Sequence record: NC_047979.1
From: Escherichia phage Gostya9
Strand: one strand, 5' to 3'
Length of the DNA stretch: 64,000 nt
The notes beneath the pieces were generated by a model. It was not told the origin of the DNA and made no database searches. It saw only the letters and a program-made list of their open reading frames with translations. The position numbers and the translations under genes are program-made. Positions 45,583 through 52,503 of this stretch are shown here, piece by piece; position 1 is the stretch's first letter, and each line of letters starts with the position of its first letter.

Positions 45583-48500
45583 TTAAGAATTTCCTAGTGT
45601 TTTTAGGCTAGCACCATTCTCATTCAGAGCTAATTCTACTGCATCCCTCAGAGCACCGCTATTACTAGAGGCGAACTCTCTAAAACTAGCAGCATCCATA
45701 GCACTAATATTCAGGATGATAGGTCTTCCTGAAGCTGAATTAGAGGAATTTTTTAACTCATCATTAGGTGTAGCTTTCATAGGAACCATAGGAGTAATTA
45801 CTTCTGTACCGTGTTCTCCCATCTGGTAGCTAACCCCTGGGTACATATTACCACCTTCGGCACGCGGCACAAATGAGTTGGCATTACCAATACCTTTCTC
45901 ACCCCGTACATAAGATAGTTCTCCAGCATTAGCAGACATAGATACATCAATGCTCTTCTGACGCTCTCCAAGAGTTAAATAACTAGTGGTATTTGCTCCA
46001 GAATCCACAGAGGGCATAGAGGATGCATTAGAAGCAGCGGCTAAGGATAGTGCGCCTGCAGCAGCCGCAGTGGCCATCATCGTTAACCCTAATGGTAAGA
46101 ACGGTTGGGTAGCTGCAGCGTTCATCATAGCTACGGCTGTAGATATGATTATTTGCTTTTTAGCTTCTCGCTGCTGTATCTTAGTCTTTTCTGCCTCCAA
46201 CTTCTTGATTTTAGCTTTAGATTCCTCAGATTTACCATCACGCTTCTGTTCTGCTGCAATAGCCTGGTCTATTGCACTTATTTGCTGGTTAGCAGAATAT
46301 GCCATCATCTGTCCCACCATCTGCATACCTGCAGATATGGTTGTTATGCTATCCAAGCTATCTTGTGCATTAGCCACCACTGCTAAGGAGAAATTACCTA
46401 TGCTGTTAGCCAATGCTGTAGAAGCAGAATCCACTTCTGACATCTTAGCTATAGCCTGATCATACATAGACATTCTATTCTCAAAATCAGCAAACTCTTT
46501 ATCAGCACCAGATAATCCATTGGTAGGAGTGAATGTACCCCCTAGTGAGGATACGACTGATTTGTACGTTTGATCCTCTCTTTGCTTTTTAAGCTGTTCT
46601 AGGGCCGCTGAAGTTTTATAAATCTCATTACGATACCTGATCTCTTCCTCGGTATTGCCCTTAGATAGTTCCAGCTGTTGCTGCAGAATGGATAGTCTTT
46701 CCGTAAGAATTTGGGATTGGCCAGTAACATTTCTCTGTGTTTGGCTAACCTCTAATGCATCCATGAGGGCTGATACATGTGAGGCAGTTGCCTGATTTTC
46801 TGCTTCCCATAGCTCTCTACTTATTTGTGCCTGAGCGCGCCTTGACTGTTCTACCTTAGCTTGACCATCCGCTTGTTTAGAGTATAATTCCGTTTTTTCC
46901 TGCTCTAACTGCAGCTCTAGTCTTAACTGCTCCAAACGATACTGAGTACTCGTCATAGTGCGGTCATTAAGAAGAGCTATTTCTCTATCAATACCAAGAA
47001 TCTTATCTGTGTAATCCTTGACCTTCTTCTGAGCTTCCATTCCCTGGTTAGTGAGTTTAATTTTCTCCAGCTGAATTTTTTCAATTTCTCTCTCAACAGC
47101 TTTGTTCCCCTGGTTTGTTTGAAGAACACGGCGTAAAGCAGCTTCTTGCTCTTCTAACTGTTGGAGTTCTAAACGCCTACCAGCTTCCTGTGCCTTTTCT
47201 TTATCCTTAGTTTGATTATATACATCAGCTATCTTCTGTTGAACTGCTAACTGATTTTTAGTTTCATTACCAGTTAGTTTAACGTACTCAGATAGAGCCT
47301 GGGATGCAGTTTTCATTTCAGACAGGGTGTTATAACCCAGGTTAAGGTTTTTAACGTACTCATCTGCACTTTTACCAGTACCTTGAGATAGTGATTCTAT
47401 ATTTTTTATAGCATCTGCTAGTGTAGCACTAGTTTTAGCGGCGGTATCTGTACTCTGAGCAACGTTCTGTATATCATTAGCTAGGTCACTAGCAGTTTTC
47501 TTAGTTTGATTATATGCTTTCTGTTGTTCAGTTAGTCCTTTTAGTACTGTAGAGTTAAAGTCATATACAGCACCAGGATCAGTAGTATCCCTATGTAGAT
47601 TAATCTGTTTCTGGAACTCTGGGTTAGCTTTTGCAGCAGCCGCACCCGCAGCTTGATAGGCTGACTTCCAAGCATTAAGGTTTTCAGTAGAATCCTCTAC
47701 TTCCTTATCTAGTCTGGCTACTTGTAGACCCATAGCCGCTGTTTCTTCTACAAACTTTTTATTAGCTTCGGAAGAACCTATGCGCATCCCTCCTACTTCA
47801 AATCCCCCAGCAGCTAACCCAACGGGCATTCCCTCGCCCACCAACCTAATAGCGGCGGCAGTACTAGCGTCTGCTTGCTCCATTCGTTTATCGAACTCAG
47901 ATTTTAGCTTATTACGCTTATCCAGGGATTCCCTATACATATCTAGAGCTTTATTATACCCCTCTTCAGAGGCAGATAGACTTAAAGCAACAGCACCAAC
48001 GTTGGTAGGATCTATCTGTCTATTAGTTTTTTCTTGAGCTCTAGCTGCTTCAGCAGATACAGAAGCCTGAGAAGTATAAAATACTGTGTTGATAGCATCA
48101 ATTACTGGTCCTAAGTACTTAGCAGCAGCTTGTTGTATTGTTCTTAGTGCAGCATCTGCGTTAGCAGCAAACTGCTCCCACGGAGTAGCACGTAAAACTT
48201 CATCTAAGTAACCAAAACGTTTAGTAGACTCTGCTATAACAGCATTAGCATACGCTTGCTGTTTCTGGAAAGTAGTGAGACTATTAATATTATAAGTTAT
48301 ACCCGTGTTAGCAGCATTTAGCTGTTTAACATAGTCAGCATATGCGTCATTAAGACGAATAGTAACACCAAGTTCATCCAGAAGTTCGATTTCCTGTTTT
48401 GATACACCCTTAATTACACGGTTAAGTGCATCAGTCATATCAACACCAAGAACAGCAGCAGCACGACGGGCTACTAGACCAAATTTATTAAGTTGCTCGG

Positions 48501-49290
48501 CATCAAATCCGTATGCAGAAGCAGAGGATGCTTGTCTCATAGCTTCTTCAAAGGAAATAGCGTACCCGGCTGCTTCTTGTAGTGATCTAGCAAGAGACTG
48601 AACAGGAGTACCTGTCTGAGTACCCACTATAACACCAAATTCTTCTAGACGATTTAGCTGGTCACCTAGTTTAAGTTGTTCGAGTGCAGATTGCAGAACG
48701 AAGATGTTAGAAGCAATAGCAGCGTACAGAAGAGGTAAACCACCACCAACTTTAGCCATTGCCGCAAAGTTACGAGTAGCTCCGCGTGCTGAACCAGAAG
48801 TATTACCAATAGCTCTAGAAGCTCTACCAGCGGCACCAGCAGTATCATTAAAACCTCTAGCTGTACCGCCTAAAACTCTATTGGTGTCGTACAATCTATC
48901 TTGAACTTTCTCTGTTGCAGCTGCAACATCATTACCCATTGCTTTAACAGACCTAGATACTCCATCAAATCCAGCCTCTAGTTTGTCTGCTACTTCAATC
49001 ATTGCAATAGATAGATCATCCAGCTTAGCACCTATACTATCAATAGATTTAGTGATACCAGCCATACCCCTACTAGCTTGCATTTTAGTAAGACTTTTCG
49101 CTGCTCTGTCTGCCGCCCTCTCAATGGAGTATAGAGTTTTGGGCATTTTACCTAACTGTTCATTTGTCAGTTCGGAAGCAGCAGCAGCATTTTCTAATGC
49201 ATCAGATACGTTTTCGATAGACTTTGCAGTACGGGTTGCCCCCTTCTGTTTAACGTCTATTAGTAATTCTCGTATTAGCTTATCAGTCAT
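45583..49290 (-). CDS. Tape measure protein (pb2-like)
   Basis: 1235 aa; long Ala/Gln/Glu-rich predicted coiled coil; hydrophobic Ala/Met-rich segment near the C-terminus; canonical position upstream of Dit. Confidence 0.85.
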   Translation of the reverse strand: MTDKLIRELLIDVKQKGATRTAKSIENVSDALENAAAASELTNEQLGKMPKTLYSIERAADRAAKSLTKMQASRGMAGITKSIDSIGAKLDDLSIAMIEVADKLEAGFDGVSRSVKAMGNDVAAATEKVQDRLYDTNRVLGGTARGFNDTAGAAGRASRAIGNTSGSARGATRNFAAMAKVGGGLPLLYAAIASNIFVLQSALEQLKLGDQLNRLEEFGVIVGTQTGTPVQSLARSLQEAAGYAISFEEAMRQASSASAYGFDAEQLNKFGLVARRAAAVLGVDMTDALNRVIKGVSKQEIELLDELGVTIRLNDAYADYVKQLNAANTGITYNINSLTTFQKQQAYANAVIAESTKRFGYLDEVLRATPWEQFAANADAALRTIQQAAAKYLGPVIDAINTVFYTSQASVSAEAARAQEKTNRQIDPTNVGAVALSLSASEEGYNKALDMYRESLDKRNKLKSEFDKRMEQADASTAAAIRLVGEGMPVGLAAGGFEVGGMRIGSSEANKKFVEETAAMGLQVARLDKEVEDSTENLNAWKSAYQAAGAAAAKANPEFQKQINLHRDTTDPGAVYDFNSTVLKGLTEQQKAYNQTKKTASDLANDIQNVAQSTDTAAKTSATLADAIKNIESLSQGTGKSADEYVKNLNLGYNTLSEMKTASQALSEYVKLTGNETKNQLAVQQKIADVYNQTKDKEKAQEAGRRLELQQLEEQEAALRRVLQTNQGNKAVEREIEKIQLEKIKLTNQGMEAQKKVKDYTDKILGIDREIALLNDRTMTSTQYRLEQLRLELQLEQEKTELYSKQADGQAKVEQSRRAQAQISRELWEAENQATASHVSALMDALEVSQTQRNVTGQSQILTERLSILQQQLELSKGNTEEEIRYRNEIYKTSAALEQLKKQREDQTYKSVVSSLGGTFTPTNGLSGADKEFADFENRMSMYDQAIAKMSEVDSASTALANSIGNFSLAVVANAQDSLDSITTISAGMQMVGQMMAYSANQQISAIDQAIAAEQKRDGKSEESKAKIKKLEAEKTKIQQREAKKQIIISTAVAMMNAAATQPFLPLGLTMMATAAAAGALSLAAASNASSMPSVDSGANTTSYLTLGERQKSIDVSMSANAGELSYVRGEKGIGNANSFVPRAEGGNMYPGVSYQMGEHGTEVITPMVPMKATPNDELKNSSNSASGRPIILNISAMDAASFREFASSNSGALRDAVELALNENGASLKTLGNS

Positions 49291-49305
49291 AATTTATTTT
49301 TCCCA

Positions 49306-49338
49306 ATAAAAAAGGCTCTGGGCAAATCACCCAGAGCC
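49306..49338 (-). terminator. Hairpin terminator upstream of the tape-measure gene
   Basis: On the minus strand: ggctctggg-tgatttg-cccagagcc followed by ttttttatt. Confidence 0.5.
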
Positions 49339-49373
49339 AAGCCTCATCGTGGAACGCCCATTGGAGGAAACTT

Positions 49374-49865
49374 TTACCGTGCTCGAGATTTGGCATGTGG
49401 CTTAACGTTAGGTATTCTACCGTTTTGCGGTTTATGCTTCTCAGCACGTTTACGTGCAGCGTCTACAGCTTTAGCATCAAATATATTGATAATGTGTAGA
49501 ACAAATTCTTTTTCTATAGGATCGGTAATCCCATAAATATCGAATAAGACACCTAAAGCAGCTTTGTCTTTGCCTATAAATATAGGAAAGTCACCCGGTA
49601 TGAAACAGTCAACTAGACTGTTATAGATATTCATACTAATAGCTACAATAGGTGGAAAGTCTTCAAGTTCAACAGGCATAGCCTTAGGATCAGGTTCTAT
49701 ACCCATTGACTCACAAAGTATTAAGTATTGTTGTTTAGTCATTTTAGATGCTGAGCTTTTAATACACTTATCTGCAAAATCAGCAACAGCATCTAGTAGT
49801 TCTTTACGCTTTTGAGCTACGAAAAGTGTCGAGGTGGAACACTGTCTGGTTGATCCAAGAATCAA
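49374..49865 (-). CDS. Candidate tail assembly chaperone, downstream frame
   Basis: Overlaps the upstream ORF by 62 nt in another frame; track start is TTG; first ATG (49742) has no clear RBS. Confidence 0.4.
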   Translation of the reverse strand: MILGSTRQCSTSTLFVAQKRKELLDAVADFADKCIKSSASKMTKQQYLILCESMGIEPDPKAMPVELEDFPPIVAISMNIYNSLVDCFIPGDFPIFIGKDKAALGVLFDIYGITDPIEKEFVLHIINIFDAKAVDAARKRAEKHKPQNGRIPNVKPHAKSRAR

Positions 49866-50208
49866 ACGCAGCAGAGTTCTGCATAAGCATTACAGCATTA
49901 TCACGACTAAATGGAACTTCAGTAGTAGGATCAGCATCTGTTTCAATCAGCATCAGCTTTTCAACGTCGCCTACAGTCAAACCAGTCCAACCTTTAATTG
50001 CAGCATCAACGAAAGCTTCAATAAACTTATCGTCATCCTGTACTTGAATTAGGGTACCATTAACCCATTCATCGCGTTTGGCAGAAGAGATAACACGTTT
50101 AGAAGTAGCACGAGACATATAATTAAGCTCTAGCTTAAAGTTTGGCATACCTGGGTATGAAAGAGTAATAGTACGGGTATCAAGAGTAATATCTTTTAAG
50201 TTAATCAT
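49804..50208 (-). CDS. Candidate tail assembly chaperone, upstream frame
   Basis: 134-aa ORF immediately upstream of the tape-measure gene, the usual chaperone position. Confidence 0.45.
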   Translation of the reverse strand: MINLKDITLDTRTITLSYPGMPNFKLELNYMSRATSKRVISSAKRDEWVNGTLIQVQDDDKFIEAFVDAAIKGWTGLTVGDVEKLMLIETDADPTTEVPFSRDNAVMLMQNSAAFDSWINQTVFHLDTFRSSKA

Positions 50209-51104
50209 TATTTTCTTTCTCCAAAGAAGTTTATTTCTACAGGGTCTGAATCAGCAGTAGGGATTACATCATACTCTACCTGATACAAATCTGAGAAGTT
50301 TAGGCGTTTTGAAATACGTGCTAAAGGGAATGTTATAGAAACATATTTATTTTTAATAATTAGTGGAGTTCTTGTTTCAGGATCTAGATTCAAGAACTTA
50401 TCTCCTACCAATCTCTTAACATAATAGAAAGCTAGCGTTGCGGAAGCATTCATCTCATTGACATAAGCTCGTTTATTAGTATAAACTTTGTTTATATCAA
50501 ATATACTTCTATCCTCTCTCCAAGAACATTGTTGCTGGAAGGACATAGATGCTGAAACTAATGCAGGCAATGGTGCGCTATTGGTATACACAGCCGGAGG
50601 ACTATATGGGAGTACCTCACCTTGTGTAATTGTATATCCATCACGGAAAGTAGATACTTCAGAGAATTTTCCAGACTCAATACCAACATTTAGAATCGGT
50701 ATACTCTTATCTAGAGAAAAGTCAACTGTTGATACATAACAGTTTTCAAAATAAATACAGCTATTATTATGATTAATAATATACATATTGAACATAATAG
50801 GTTCAATATTGGGAGTATTTCTTGGCAAAAATAAAGAATTTCCCTCACGCGTGAATCCCATCCAGTCAAAGAAATTAGACTCAATAAGCGTAGTACTGAA
50901 ATTTATTGCCAATGAAATAGATGAAGGATCTTGAGCATTAATAATAGAGTCTGCATAGTTAGTACGATTATGGATAGTACGCCTAAGGGTTTTAAACTCC
51001 TGAAAAGACGTACTAGCATCATAGTTAGAGAGGGCATCGAAATGATACCCTCTACCGTCATACTCAATAACTATTTTAGACTCTCGCATGAGAGAATAAA
51101 ACAT
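50208..51104 (-). CDS. Tail-associated structural protein (298 aa)
   Basis: Position between the tail tube gene and the chaperone pair. Confidence 0.45.
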   Translation of the reverse strand: MFYSLMRESKIVIEYDGRGYHFDALSNYDASTSFQEFKTLRRTIHNRTNYADSIINAQDPSSISLAINFSTTLIESNFFDWMGFTREGNSLFLPRNTPNIEPIMFNMYIINHNNSCIYFENCYVSTVDFSLDKSIPILNVGIESGKFSEVSTFRDGYTITQGEVLPYSPPAVYTNSAPLPALVSASMSFQQQCSWREDRSIFDINKVYTNKRAYVNEMNASATLAFYYVKRLVGDKFLNLDPETRTPLIIKNKYVSITFPLARISKRLNFSDLYQVEYDVIPTADSDPVEINFFGERK

Positions 51105-51108
51105 TTAA

Positions 51109-52503
51109 TTAACCACCTGCTGTTACAGTAATCTGCTTAGTGCCTTTAACTCCAGAACCATCTTTAGCAGTAGCTTCTATGGTTACTACACCAGTTTTAC
51201 TAGCATCTGCTGTTAACAGTCCTGCTGCACTGATAGTAGCTGCGTCACCAGCAGTGATAGCCCAAGTAACTTCCTTATTCTGTGCAGAAGAAGGAGTAAC
51301 TTCAACACTCATTTGGAGAGTAGCCGAGTTGTTTACTGTAGTAACATCACCAGCAGATTTAACAGTAATTGCGGTTACAGCATCAGTAGACCCATCACCA
51401 TTAACAATCAAGTTATTAATAGTTGTTTTAGTATACTTGTTAGAAAATCCAAGATAACCTTCGTCACCAGTATCCAAATCTGTAGGAATAGCCTTAAATT
51501 CCACTGAGGTACCAAGTACATCATCAGTTTCAATAGTAGGAATATTAACGTGCGCCTGTTTAGCTACTAGAATAGCTGCAGGACGTTCTTCGTCATATTC
51601 ACCACCAAGTACCAGAGCGATTTCGAAGCGGTTAACTACTTTCAGAGTTTTGATAAGATCTTTATACAGTTCCATAGAACCAAGAGATTTATCATTCAGA
51701 TAAGCAGTTAATGAACCCGTTAACTCAAACGCACCAGTAAATGAACCGATAGGAATATTTACACGGGACATAATATTTGGGGTTAGATATGTGATGTTGT
51801 TATTAACGGTAAAAGTACCACCAGTAATAGGTATGTCATATGCCTTACCAGAATCCATATCCTTAATTTTCAGGATAGTTAACTTGTTCTTAATGTAAGA
51901 ACTCTGAATAGTCATATAAGTTTCATCATCAATACCTAGCGCATCTGGATCAAATGGTTGCTCATCCAGTGGGATTAGCTGATTACCATTACCAGACCAA
52001 GTTACACGACCAATATCTTCAATATCAACGTTAACTTCTGCCTGGTTGATCTGGCAAGAGTCAATGTAACTCCACGCATTGTCAGTCAGAATGTAAATAT
52101 GCAGCATAGCCAGTTCGTGATATGCGTTATCTTTGAAGTTAACCATGAAGTTAGTAGCATTATTATGTGCTCCAGTATCTCCATCAAGGTCAATAGCTTT
52201 ACCACTAGAAAGTGCATGCCATAACATATAGTCAGGAACAATTTGTTTACCAGTAGTTGTATCCTCGTATGGTAGGATATAGGTGGAAAAGCTCCACTCA
52301 GCCGCGTTCAAGGAATCGTTAAAACGTTTAGAACCACGAGTAGGACGCGGACCAGCTTCGTTAACAGTAATATCTGTTGAGTTACTGTCCTGACCCCAAG
52401 AAATATCATCCTGAACTAGAATCTCTTGCGTGTTGGTCGTATCATGACCAGTCTTAACCGTAGACACGAAGATTCGAGTATTACGTAATAGTTGTAAAGA
52501 CAT
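51109..52503 (-). CDS. Tail tube protein with C-terminal Ig-like domain (pb6-like)
   Basis: 464 aa; optimal-codon rich; C-terminal about 80 aa is Ig-like (TVEVTPSSAQNKEVTWAITAGDAATISAAGLLTA...GVVTIEATAKDGSG). Confidence 0.75.
   Translation of the reverse strand: MSLQLLRNTRIFVSTVKTGHDTTNTQEILVQDDISWGQDSNSTDITVNEAGPRPTRGSKRFNDSLNAAEWSFSTYILPYEDTTTGKQIVPDYMLWHALSSGKAIDLDGDTGAHNNATNFMVNFKDNAYHELAMLHIYILTDNAWSYIDSCQINQAEVNVDIEDIGRVTWSGNGNQLIPLDEQPFDPDALGIDDETYMTIQSSYIKNKLTILKIKDMDSGKAYDIPITGGTFTVNNNITYLTPNIMSRVNIPIGSFTGAFELTGSLTAYLNDKSLGSMELYKDLIKTLKVVNRFEIALVLGGEYDEERPAAILVAKQAHVNIPTIETDDVLGTSVEFKAIPTDLDTGDEGYLGFSNKYTKTTINNLIVNGDGSTDAVTAITVKSAGDVTTVNNSATLQMSVEVTPSSAQNKEVTWAITAGDAATISAAGLLTADASKTGVVTIEATAKDGSGVKGTKQITVTAGG

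Follow-up and report, generated by a model that had tools for sequence, protein, structure and literature searches.

Frameshifted tail assembly chaperones are a textbook feature of long-tailed phages. In phage lambda, gpG and gpGT are encoded directly ahead of the tape-measure gene by two overlapping ORFs of ~130-150 codons each. The second ORF has no start of its own; a -1 shift on an X_XXY_YYZ heptamer near the end of the first produces much of the short protein and little of the fusion, at a G:GT ratio of ~30:1 (PMC5009743). The frameshift is conserved in long-tailed phages (Xu, Hendrix and Duda 2004; reviewed in PMC5009743). Shifts in the +1 direction have been described in other systems. 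The PA-X protein of influenza A virus arises by a +1 slip on UCC_UUU_CGU that was proven by protein sequencing; the authors predicted that UUU_C sites form a general class in which the A-site codon is restricted, and proposed a wider UUU_CGN class for amalgaviruses and others (PMC3498833). That paper also cites +1 shifts in tail genes of Listeria phage PSA and of SPP1, and in prfB (RF2); in these cases the P-site tRNA slips +1 onto an overlapping cognate or near-cognate codon.

Here we compare with these systems two ORFs, hereafter ORF1 and ORF2, of Escherichia phage Gostya9 (NC_047979.1). Throughout, "the window" is the whole 64,000-nt stretch of DNA that was analysed. The pair shares with lambda G/GT two overlapping ORFs of similar size just upstream of the tape-measure gene, a second ORF that lacks a start, a putative shift near the end of the first ORF, and the expected output of an abundant short protein and a rare fusion. 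It differs from lambda in that the shift would be +1 on UUU_CGU rather than -1 on an X_XXY_YYZ heptamer, in the lack of a Pfam chaperone sequence match, and in the presence of the p140 gene between the tail tube gene and G. We estimate a probability of roughly 0.85 that ORF1 and ORF2 are a gpG/gpGT-type tail assembly chaperone pair joined by a +1 slip on UUU_CGU.

Layout and identity of the gene pair

The window is from a T5-like phage (Tequintavirus) with ~96% nucleotide identity to T5; the 1.2-kb region studied here matched 444 phage records at 80-99% nucleotide identity, T5 among them at ~96%. Every gene in this region is on the minus strand, in the order capsid protein (pb8 homologue), three small head/neck genes, pb6, p140, ORF1, ORF2 and pb2, which places the pair after the tail tube genes and before the tape-measure gene. 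No tRNA genes were found in the 64-kb window. The features relevant to the analysis are as follows.

51109-52503, minus strand: gene for the tail tube protein, pb6 homologue
50208-51104, minus strand: gene for the baseplate tube protein p140 (Pfam PF23779, E 2.6e-141; PHROG 3889)
49804-50208, minus strand: ORF1, probable gpG-like tail assembly chaperone, 134 aa, with an ATG start and the stop TAA at 49806-49804
49804-49889, minus strand: stretch open in both frames, 86 nt here and only 26 nt in most T5-like phages
49374-49865, minus strand: ORF2 as given in the ORF track, 163 aa, with a TTG start
49863-49865, minus strand: TTG, the ORF-track start of ORF2, not conserved and without a Shine-Dalgarno (SD) sequence
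49819-49827, minus strand: candidate +1 shift site ACT_TTT_CGT, with the Phe codon TTT at 49824-49822 and the zero-frame A-site codon CGT at 49821-49819
49374-49820, minus strand: putative T-frame coding region after the slip, 148 codons and the stop TAA at 49376-49374
49740-49742, minus strand: internal ATG from which public annotations begin the second gene, giving a 122-aa product, without an SD sequence
45583-49290, minus strand: tape-measure gene, pb2 homologue, 1235 aa (T5 counterpart D18-19, pb2)

The p140 gene is directly upstream of ORF1, and its stop codon overlaps the ORF1 start. The pb2 homologue, presumed to be the client of the chaperone, has its ORF start at 49290, 83 nt downstream of ORF2. 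A preliminary description of this DNA had listed ORFs of 134 and 163 aa that overlap by 62 nt ahead of the tape-measure gene, and had placed the second frame at +1 (or -2) relative to the first rather than at -1. The coordinates (overlap 49804-49865) and lengths are exact. In minus-strand coordinates, codons of ORF1 start at 0 mod 3 and those of ORF2 at 2 mod 3; therefore ORF2 is +1 (equivalently -2) to ORF1, and the same relation is found in all 11 annotated Demerecviridae loci, which represent at least 8 genera.

The ORF2 frame is open from 49889, so that the true overlap is the 86-nt stretch listed above. Its length is peculiar to the lineage of the window: the codon at 49833-49831 (minus strand) is CTC in this lineage and TTA or CTA in most T5-like phages. 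The change to CTC removed a T-frame TAG, opened both frames over 86 nt instead of 26, and created the spurious TTG "start".

The 83-nt spacer between ORF2 and the tape-measure gene contains a strong intrinsic-terminator-like hairpin (49314-49338, minus strand; 11 bp, 7 of them GC, followed by TTTTTTATTG), and a terminator is annotated at the same spot, between the T ORF and the tape-measure gene, in the T5 and BF23 records. Hence, transcription of the tape-measure gene may depend on read-through or on a promoter of its own. In T5 (NC_005859, 2622-3374), a 753-nt endonuclease gene of the homing-endonuclease type, T5.141, lies between the chaperone pair and pb2; this insertion is missing from the window (49291-49373 compared) and from most relatives.

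Both ORFs match the PHROG family 313, "tail assembly chaperone": ORF1 covers profile positions 12-141 and ORF2 positions 170-258, indicating that the family profile holds both halves in one chain. The T-frame region also matches PHROG 3914 (E 2.6e-56). An AlphaFold model of ORF1 built from 93 homologues has a pLDDT of 94, and its best structural match is the HK97 chaperone, the nearest to the predicted G fold. The model of the T part (pLDDT 87) has no informative structural neighbour, and no chaperone match was found in sequence searches of Pfam, NCBIfam and the PDB. We conclude that ORF1 is probably a gpG-like tail assembly chaperone, and that its 134-aa protein is the normal zero-frame product.

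Frames of the two halves in related loci

A set of 128 related loci was drawn from annotated phages and IMG/VR, and tblastn was used to place the G and T halves of each. The T half is +1 to the G half in 68 loci and -1 in 60; in none are the two in frame. Because the halves differ in frame in 128 of 128 loci, the arrangement is far beyond chance. Consistent with this, tblastn matched 908 phage records, and among the matches listed 59 of 60 reach both halves, all 59 in two pieces. A search of 1.84 billion cluster representatives gave 424 homologues, and no full-length fusion is present in the best 150 of these; the G-type matches in the same best 150 of 424 end at query positions 123-141, nearly all at or beyond 129. 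A 94-aa database protein (P0003) does cross the G/T junction (…DTFRSSKRKLLDAVADF…), with unrelated residues at its end; it looks like the product of an assembly with indel errors and not a natural fusion.

The two frame relations separate cleanly by sequence. Below 50% amino acid identity, the +1 loci form 8 clusters and the -1 loci 2, and no cluster is mixed. The +1 clusters comprise Tequintavirus/Epseptimavirus/Sugarlandvirus, Pantoea AAS21, several Vibrio genera, Proteus Novosibvirus and a marine group. Across nine genera-level relatives, the alignment runs gap-free through the G/T junction, including the T-frame residues of the window phage after the Phe encoded at the candidate shift site. 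An alignment of 93 G homologues has only three invariant columns, and this residue, F129, is one of them; beyond it, ORF1 continues for 1 to 34 residues that show no conservation. The residue after the invariant Phe is Arg in 45 of the 93 G-family representatives, and these 45 are probably of the +1 UUU_CGN type, judging by the encoded residue. Other representatives have Thr, Ser, Asn, Gln, Glu and others after the Phe, and some have Ala, Leu or Val before it, suggesting that further slip-site variants may exist in the chaperone family.

The -1 loci are marine metagenome contigs from IMG/VR (L046-L119). Their G and T halves are homologous to those of the window family (the closest pair is 47% identical) and include the same conserved Phe codon, where they differ in having what reads as a canonical -1 cassette rather than a +1 site. 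The heptamer A_AAT_TTT is present in 60 of 60 loci at the homologous Glu-Asn-Phe (E-N-F) position; an SD-like GGTGA or GGAGA lies ~10 nt upstream of it in 8 of 10 representatives; and the commonest form carries, 9 nt downstream, a hairpin in which three of seven pairs show compensatory changes. By sequence, heptamer, SD-like element and hairpin together are a textbook -1 cassette. The covarying hairpin of this clade occurs in at least two architectures, CAAGTAGCC...GGCTACTTG and GAGCAAG...CTTGCTC. The presence of a -1 cassette at the same Phe codon indicates that the family clearly uses frameshifting there. The overlap in the window contains no canonical X_XXY_YYZ heptamer; with ORF2 in the +1 frame, a fusion here could not come from a -1 heptamer.

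Initiation signals of the second ORF

ORF2 overlaps ORF1 in another frame and has no initiation signals of its own. The duplex energy with the anti-SD sequence is +0.2 kcal/mol for the TTG at 49865 and -0.1 kcal/mol for the ATG at 49742, as compared with -4.2 to -7.4 kcal/mol for nine neighbouring structural genes. The TTG occurs only in the window and in two near-identical genomes (L012 and L015). Of 32 unique T5-like sequences, 29 have a T-frame TAG 9 nt ahead of the candidate shift position, and these 29 contain zero ATG, GTG or TTG codons ahead of the internal ATG.

The annotated ATG nevertheless underlies the most serious alternative, namely that the pair is two independent genes, with ORF2 translated from ATG 49742 as a 122-aa protein and no frameshift. 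Two separate genes are listed, and no joined CDS, in the 14 annotated records examined; RefSeq T5, ESCO30 and BF23 all use the two-gene annotation, and the BF23 annotators placed a promoter just upstream of the second gene. A 2018 genome note (PMC6256483) says, with reference to an analysis of the T5 morphogenesis genes from 2014, that no frameshift signal is predicted for T5. The ATG itself is kept throughout Tequintavirus and Epseptimavirus. However, its conservation is limited to these close relatives: the alignment column is M/I/V/L/F, with Ile, Val, Leu or Phe in place of Met in the Klebsiella and Pantoea relatives and in three of the four Vibrio relatives aligned. Moreover, the 60-nt linker between the ORF1 stop and the annotated ATG evolves as T-frame coding sequence. 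It varies at 14 of 20 third codon positions, 5 of 20 first positions and 1 of 20 second positions in the T frame, and the peptide that it encodes upstream of the ATG, VAQKRKELLDAVADFADKCIKSSASK, is identical in 27 of 32 sequences. On this substitution pattern, the linker is under purifying selection in the T frame. Coding constraint in a region that lacks its own start implies that the linker is translated in the ORF2 frame, which can be reached only from ORF1. Independent initiation would also leave unexplained the invariant TTT_CG described below and the -1 cassette of the sister clade. We therefore regard two independent genes as improbable, although T5-like phages may make some minor T-only product beside GT.

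The bases just before ATG 49742 are covered by a predicted hairpin (49745-49795, minus strand; UAGAUGCUG...CAGCAUCUA) that ends 2 nt before the ATG. The 101-nt fold that encloses it has a z-score of -2.0; one relative (L036) has a compensatory U:A to C:G change, and other relatives have an A to G change that preserves pairing as G:U. As modelled, this hairpin could mask internal initiation. We considered it as a classical frameshift stimulator and rejected it: it starts ~27 nt after the slip site, which is too far.

The preliminary description had noted that ORF2 has no credible start, and had taken the layout as the usual one for frameshifted tail chaperone pairs. Both views hold: there is no SD sequence at the TTG or the ATG, neither the TTG nor the Met is conserved, and the frames differ in all 128 related loci. 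The comparison with related phages that it had proposed thus gave a frame split throughout, in the +1 direction in 68 loci and -1 in 60. Its other proposal, a search of 49804-49865 for slippery motifs, yielded TTT_CGT, with TTT_CG present in 68 of 68 +1 loci.

The TTT_CG site and the predicted fusion

All 68 +1 loci contain an in-frame TTT_CG(T/A/C) in the overlap, and the overlap therefore holds a conserved, shift-prone sequence. All +1 relatives have CGT, CGA or CGC in the A site, and none has another C-starting codon. The position of the shift is tightly delimited. The shortest overlap, in Vibrio phage D350, is 14 nt (AAC AAC TTT CGT TAA), and in several marine members the T frame opens just 5 nt before the TTT; together, these confine the shift to approximately AAC_TTT_CGN. 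Among the 11 positions from 5 nt upstream of the TTT to 3 nt downstream, TTTCG are the sole fully invariant ones. All 109 unique sequences have TTT as the shift Phe codon; at two control conserved Phe columns of G, TTT/TTC counts are 57/43 and 92/15. UUU-pyrimidine sites have reportedly been found to be prone to +1 shifts in E. coli (Fu and Parker in 1994; Schwartz and Curran in 1997). In 41 long ORFs of the phage itself, TTT before C was observed 34 times against 64.8 expected, and TTT before T 30 times against 66 expected; TTC-C and TTC-T are enriched. This avoidance fits genome-wide selection against UUU_Y slippage, and makes the universally kept TTT_C exceptional.

The site in the window, ACT_TTT_CGT (49827-49819), has UUU followed by C and a CGN codon in the A site. 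It shares with PA-X the identical UUU_CGN core, a P-site tRNA-Phe that would move from UUU to the better-matched UUC, no known structured stimulator and a low expected efficiency. It differs from PA-X in its bacterial host and in its E-site codon, which is ACU, AAC, AAU or GGG rather than UCC. Furthermore, the A-site codon is common, not rare, in the host: CGT makes up 19.4 per 1000 codons in the window ORFs, and CGU 20.2 per 1000 in E. coli (PMC3498833 table). The putative slip onto an overlapping cognate or near-cognate codon is shared with prfB, PSA and SPP1. The site is not of the prfB type, since its A-site codon is the common sense codon CGT and the anti-SD energy upstream of it is +0.4 kcal/mol, i.e. 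there is no SD sequence. Across the +1 clades, neither an SD-like element upstream nor a hairpin in the 60 nt downstream recurs consistently.

A less probable alternative still is that the frames are joined by a frameshift at another site or by another route: tRNA-Lys could slip +1 on AAA_G (49812-49809), the shift could be -2, or the polymerase could slip on the T run during transcription. Slippage by tRNA-Lys is known, and AAA_G is present in the overlap of T5-like phages; however, it is missing in the Pantoea, Vibrio and Proteus relatives, is replaced by AAA_T or AAA_C in Sugarlandvirus, and has no place in phage D350, where ORF1 ends right after TTT_CGT. We therefore dropped AAA_G as a shift site because it is not conserved. 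A -2 shift would require U-rich bases upstream for re-pairing, but most relatives have AAC_TTT. For transcriptional slippage, ACT_TTT does provide four Ts in the window, but polymerase slippage needs far more than the three or four Ts found here. Least probable of all is termination-reinitiation, in which ribosomes finish ORF1 and restart nearby in the ORF2 frame: the ORFs overlap or abut in every relative, but the T frame has no conserved start codon near the ORF1 stop, the distance from TTT to that stop ranges from 1 to 34 codons, and the T-frame residues right after the Phe codon align gap-free across genera.

For the +1 slip on UUU_CGU, we infer the following course. Most ribosomes would terminate at the ORF1 stop, giving the G protein of 134 aa. 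In a minority, tRNA-Phe (anticodon GAA), bound in the P site to UUU at 49824-49822 by G:U wobble, would slip +1 and re-pair on UUC at 49823-49821, the re-pairing base being the C at 49821; this pairing is Watson-Crick and hence the better match. Decoding would resume at GUA (49820-49818) in the ORF2 frame and end at the stop codon whose last base is 49374. On the minus strand, join(50208..49822, 49820..49374) encodes the predicted GT fusion, a protein of 129 + 148 = 277 aa and about 31 kDa with the sequence M1...DTF129-VAQKRKELLD...R277 and the junction ...HLDTFVAQK. The transframe junction is expected as ...SWINQTVFHLDTF-VAQK, with the tryptic peptide DNAVMLMQNSAAFDSWINQTVFHLDTFVAQK, and the linker peptides expected from the fusion include ELLDAVADFADK. 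If the two parts act as in lambda, pb2, the tape-measure protein, would be coated by the G part, and the T part would serve to recruit pb6, the tail tube protein. A low intrinsic slip efficiency would suit such a pair, given the ~30:1 ratio in lambda, which would lead one to expect a few per cent.

Our analysis supports the view that the pair belongs functionally to the known G/GT system, but with a different recoding signal, UUU_CGN in the +1 direction, that is conserved across Demerecviridae. No description of a chaperone frameshift in the T5 family was found in the literature searched; one may exist elsewhere. We lean, with less confidence than for the slip itself, towards a broader reading: that UUU_CGN is a minimal, host-independent +1 signal that acts on bacterial ribosomes as in influenza A virus and plant amalgaviruses, and needs no rare codon, stop codon, SD sequence or RNA structure; that it is the unrecognised recoding signal of the chaperone of T5 and all Demerecviridae; and that evolution has switched between a -1 cassette and a +1 site at the same Phe codon.

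With UUU_CGU as the signal, hundreds of T5-like genomes, many from therapy candidates, would need a corrected annotation, and models of T5 tail assembly would gain the missing 277-aa GT protein. It would also bring the PA-X +1 motif into an E. coli system, where its tRNA, codon and ribosome determinants would be genetically dissectable. The paired -1 and +1 clades would then represent a natural experiment in which recoding signals were exchanged and the protein output was kept.
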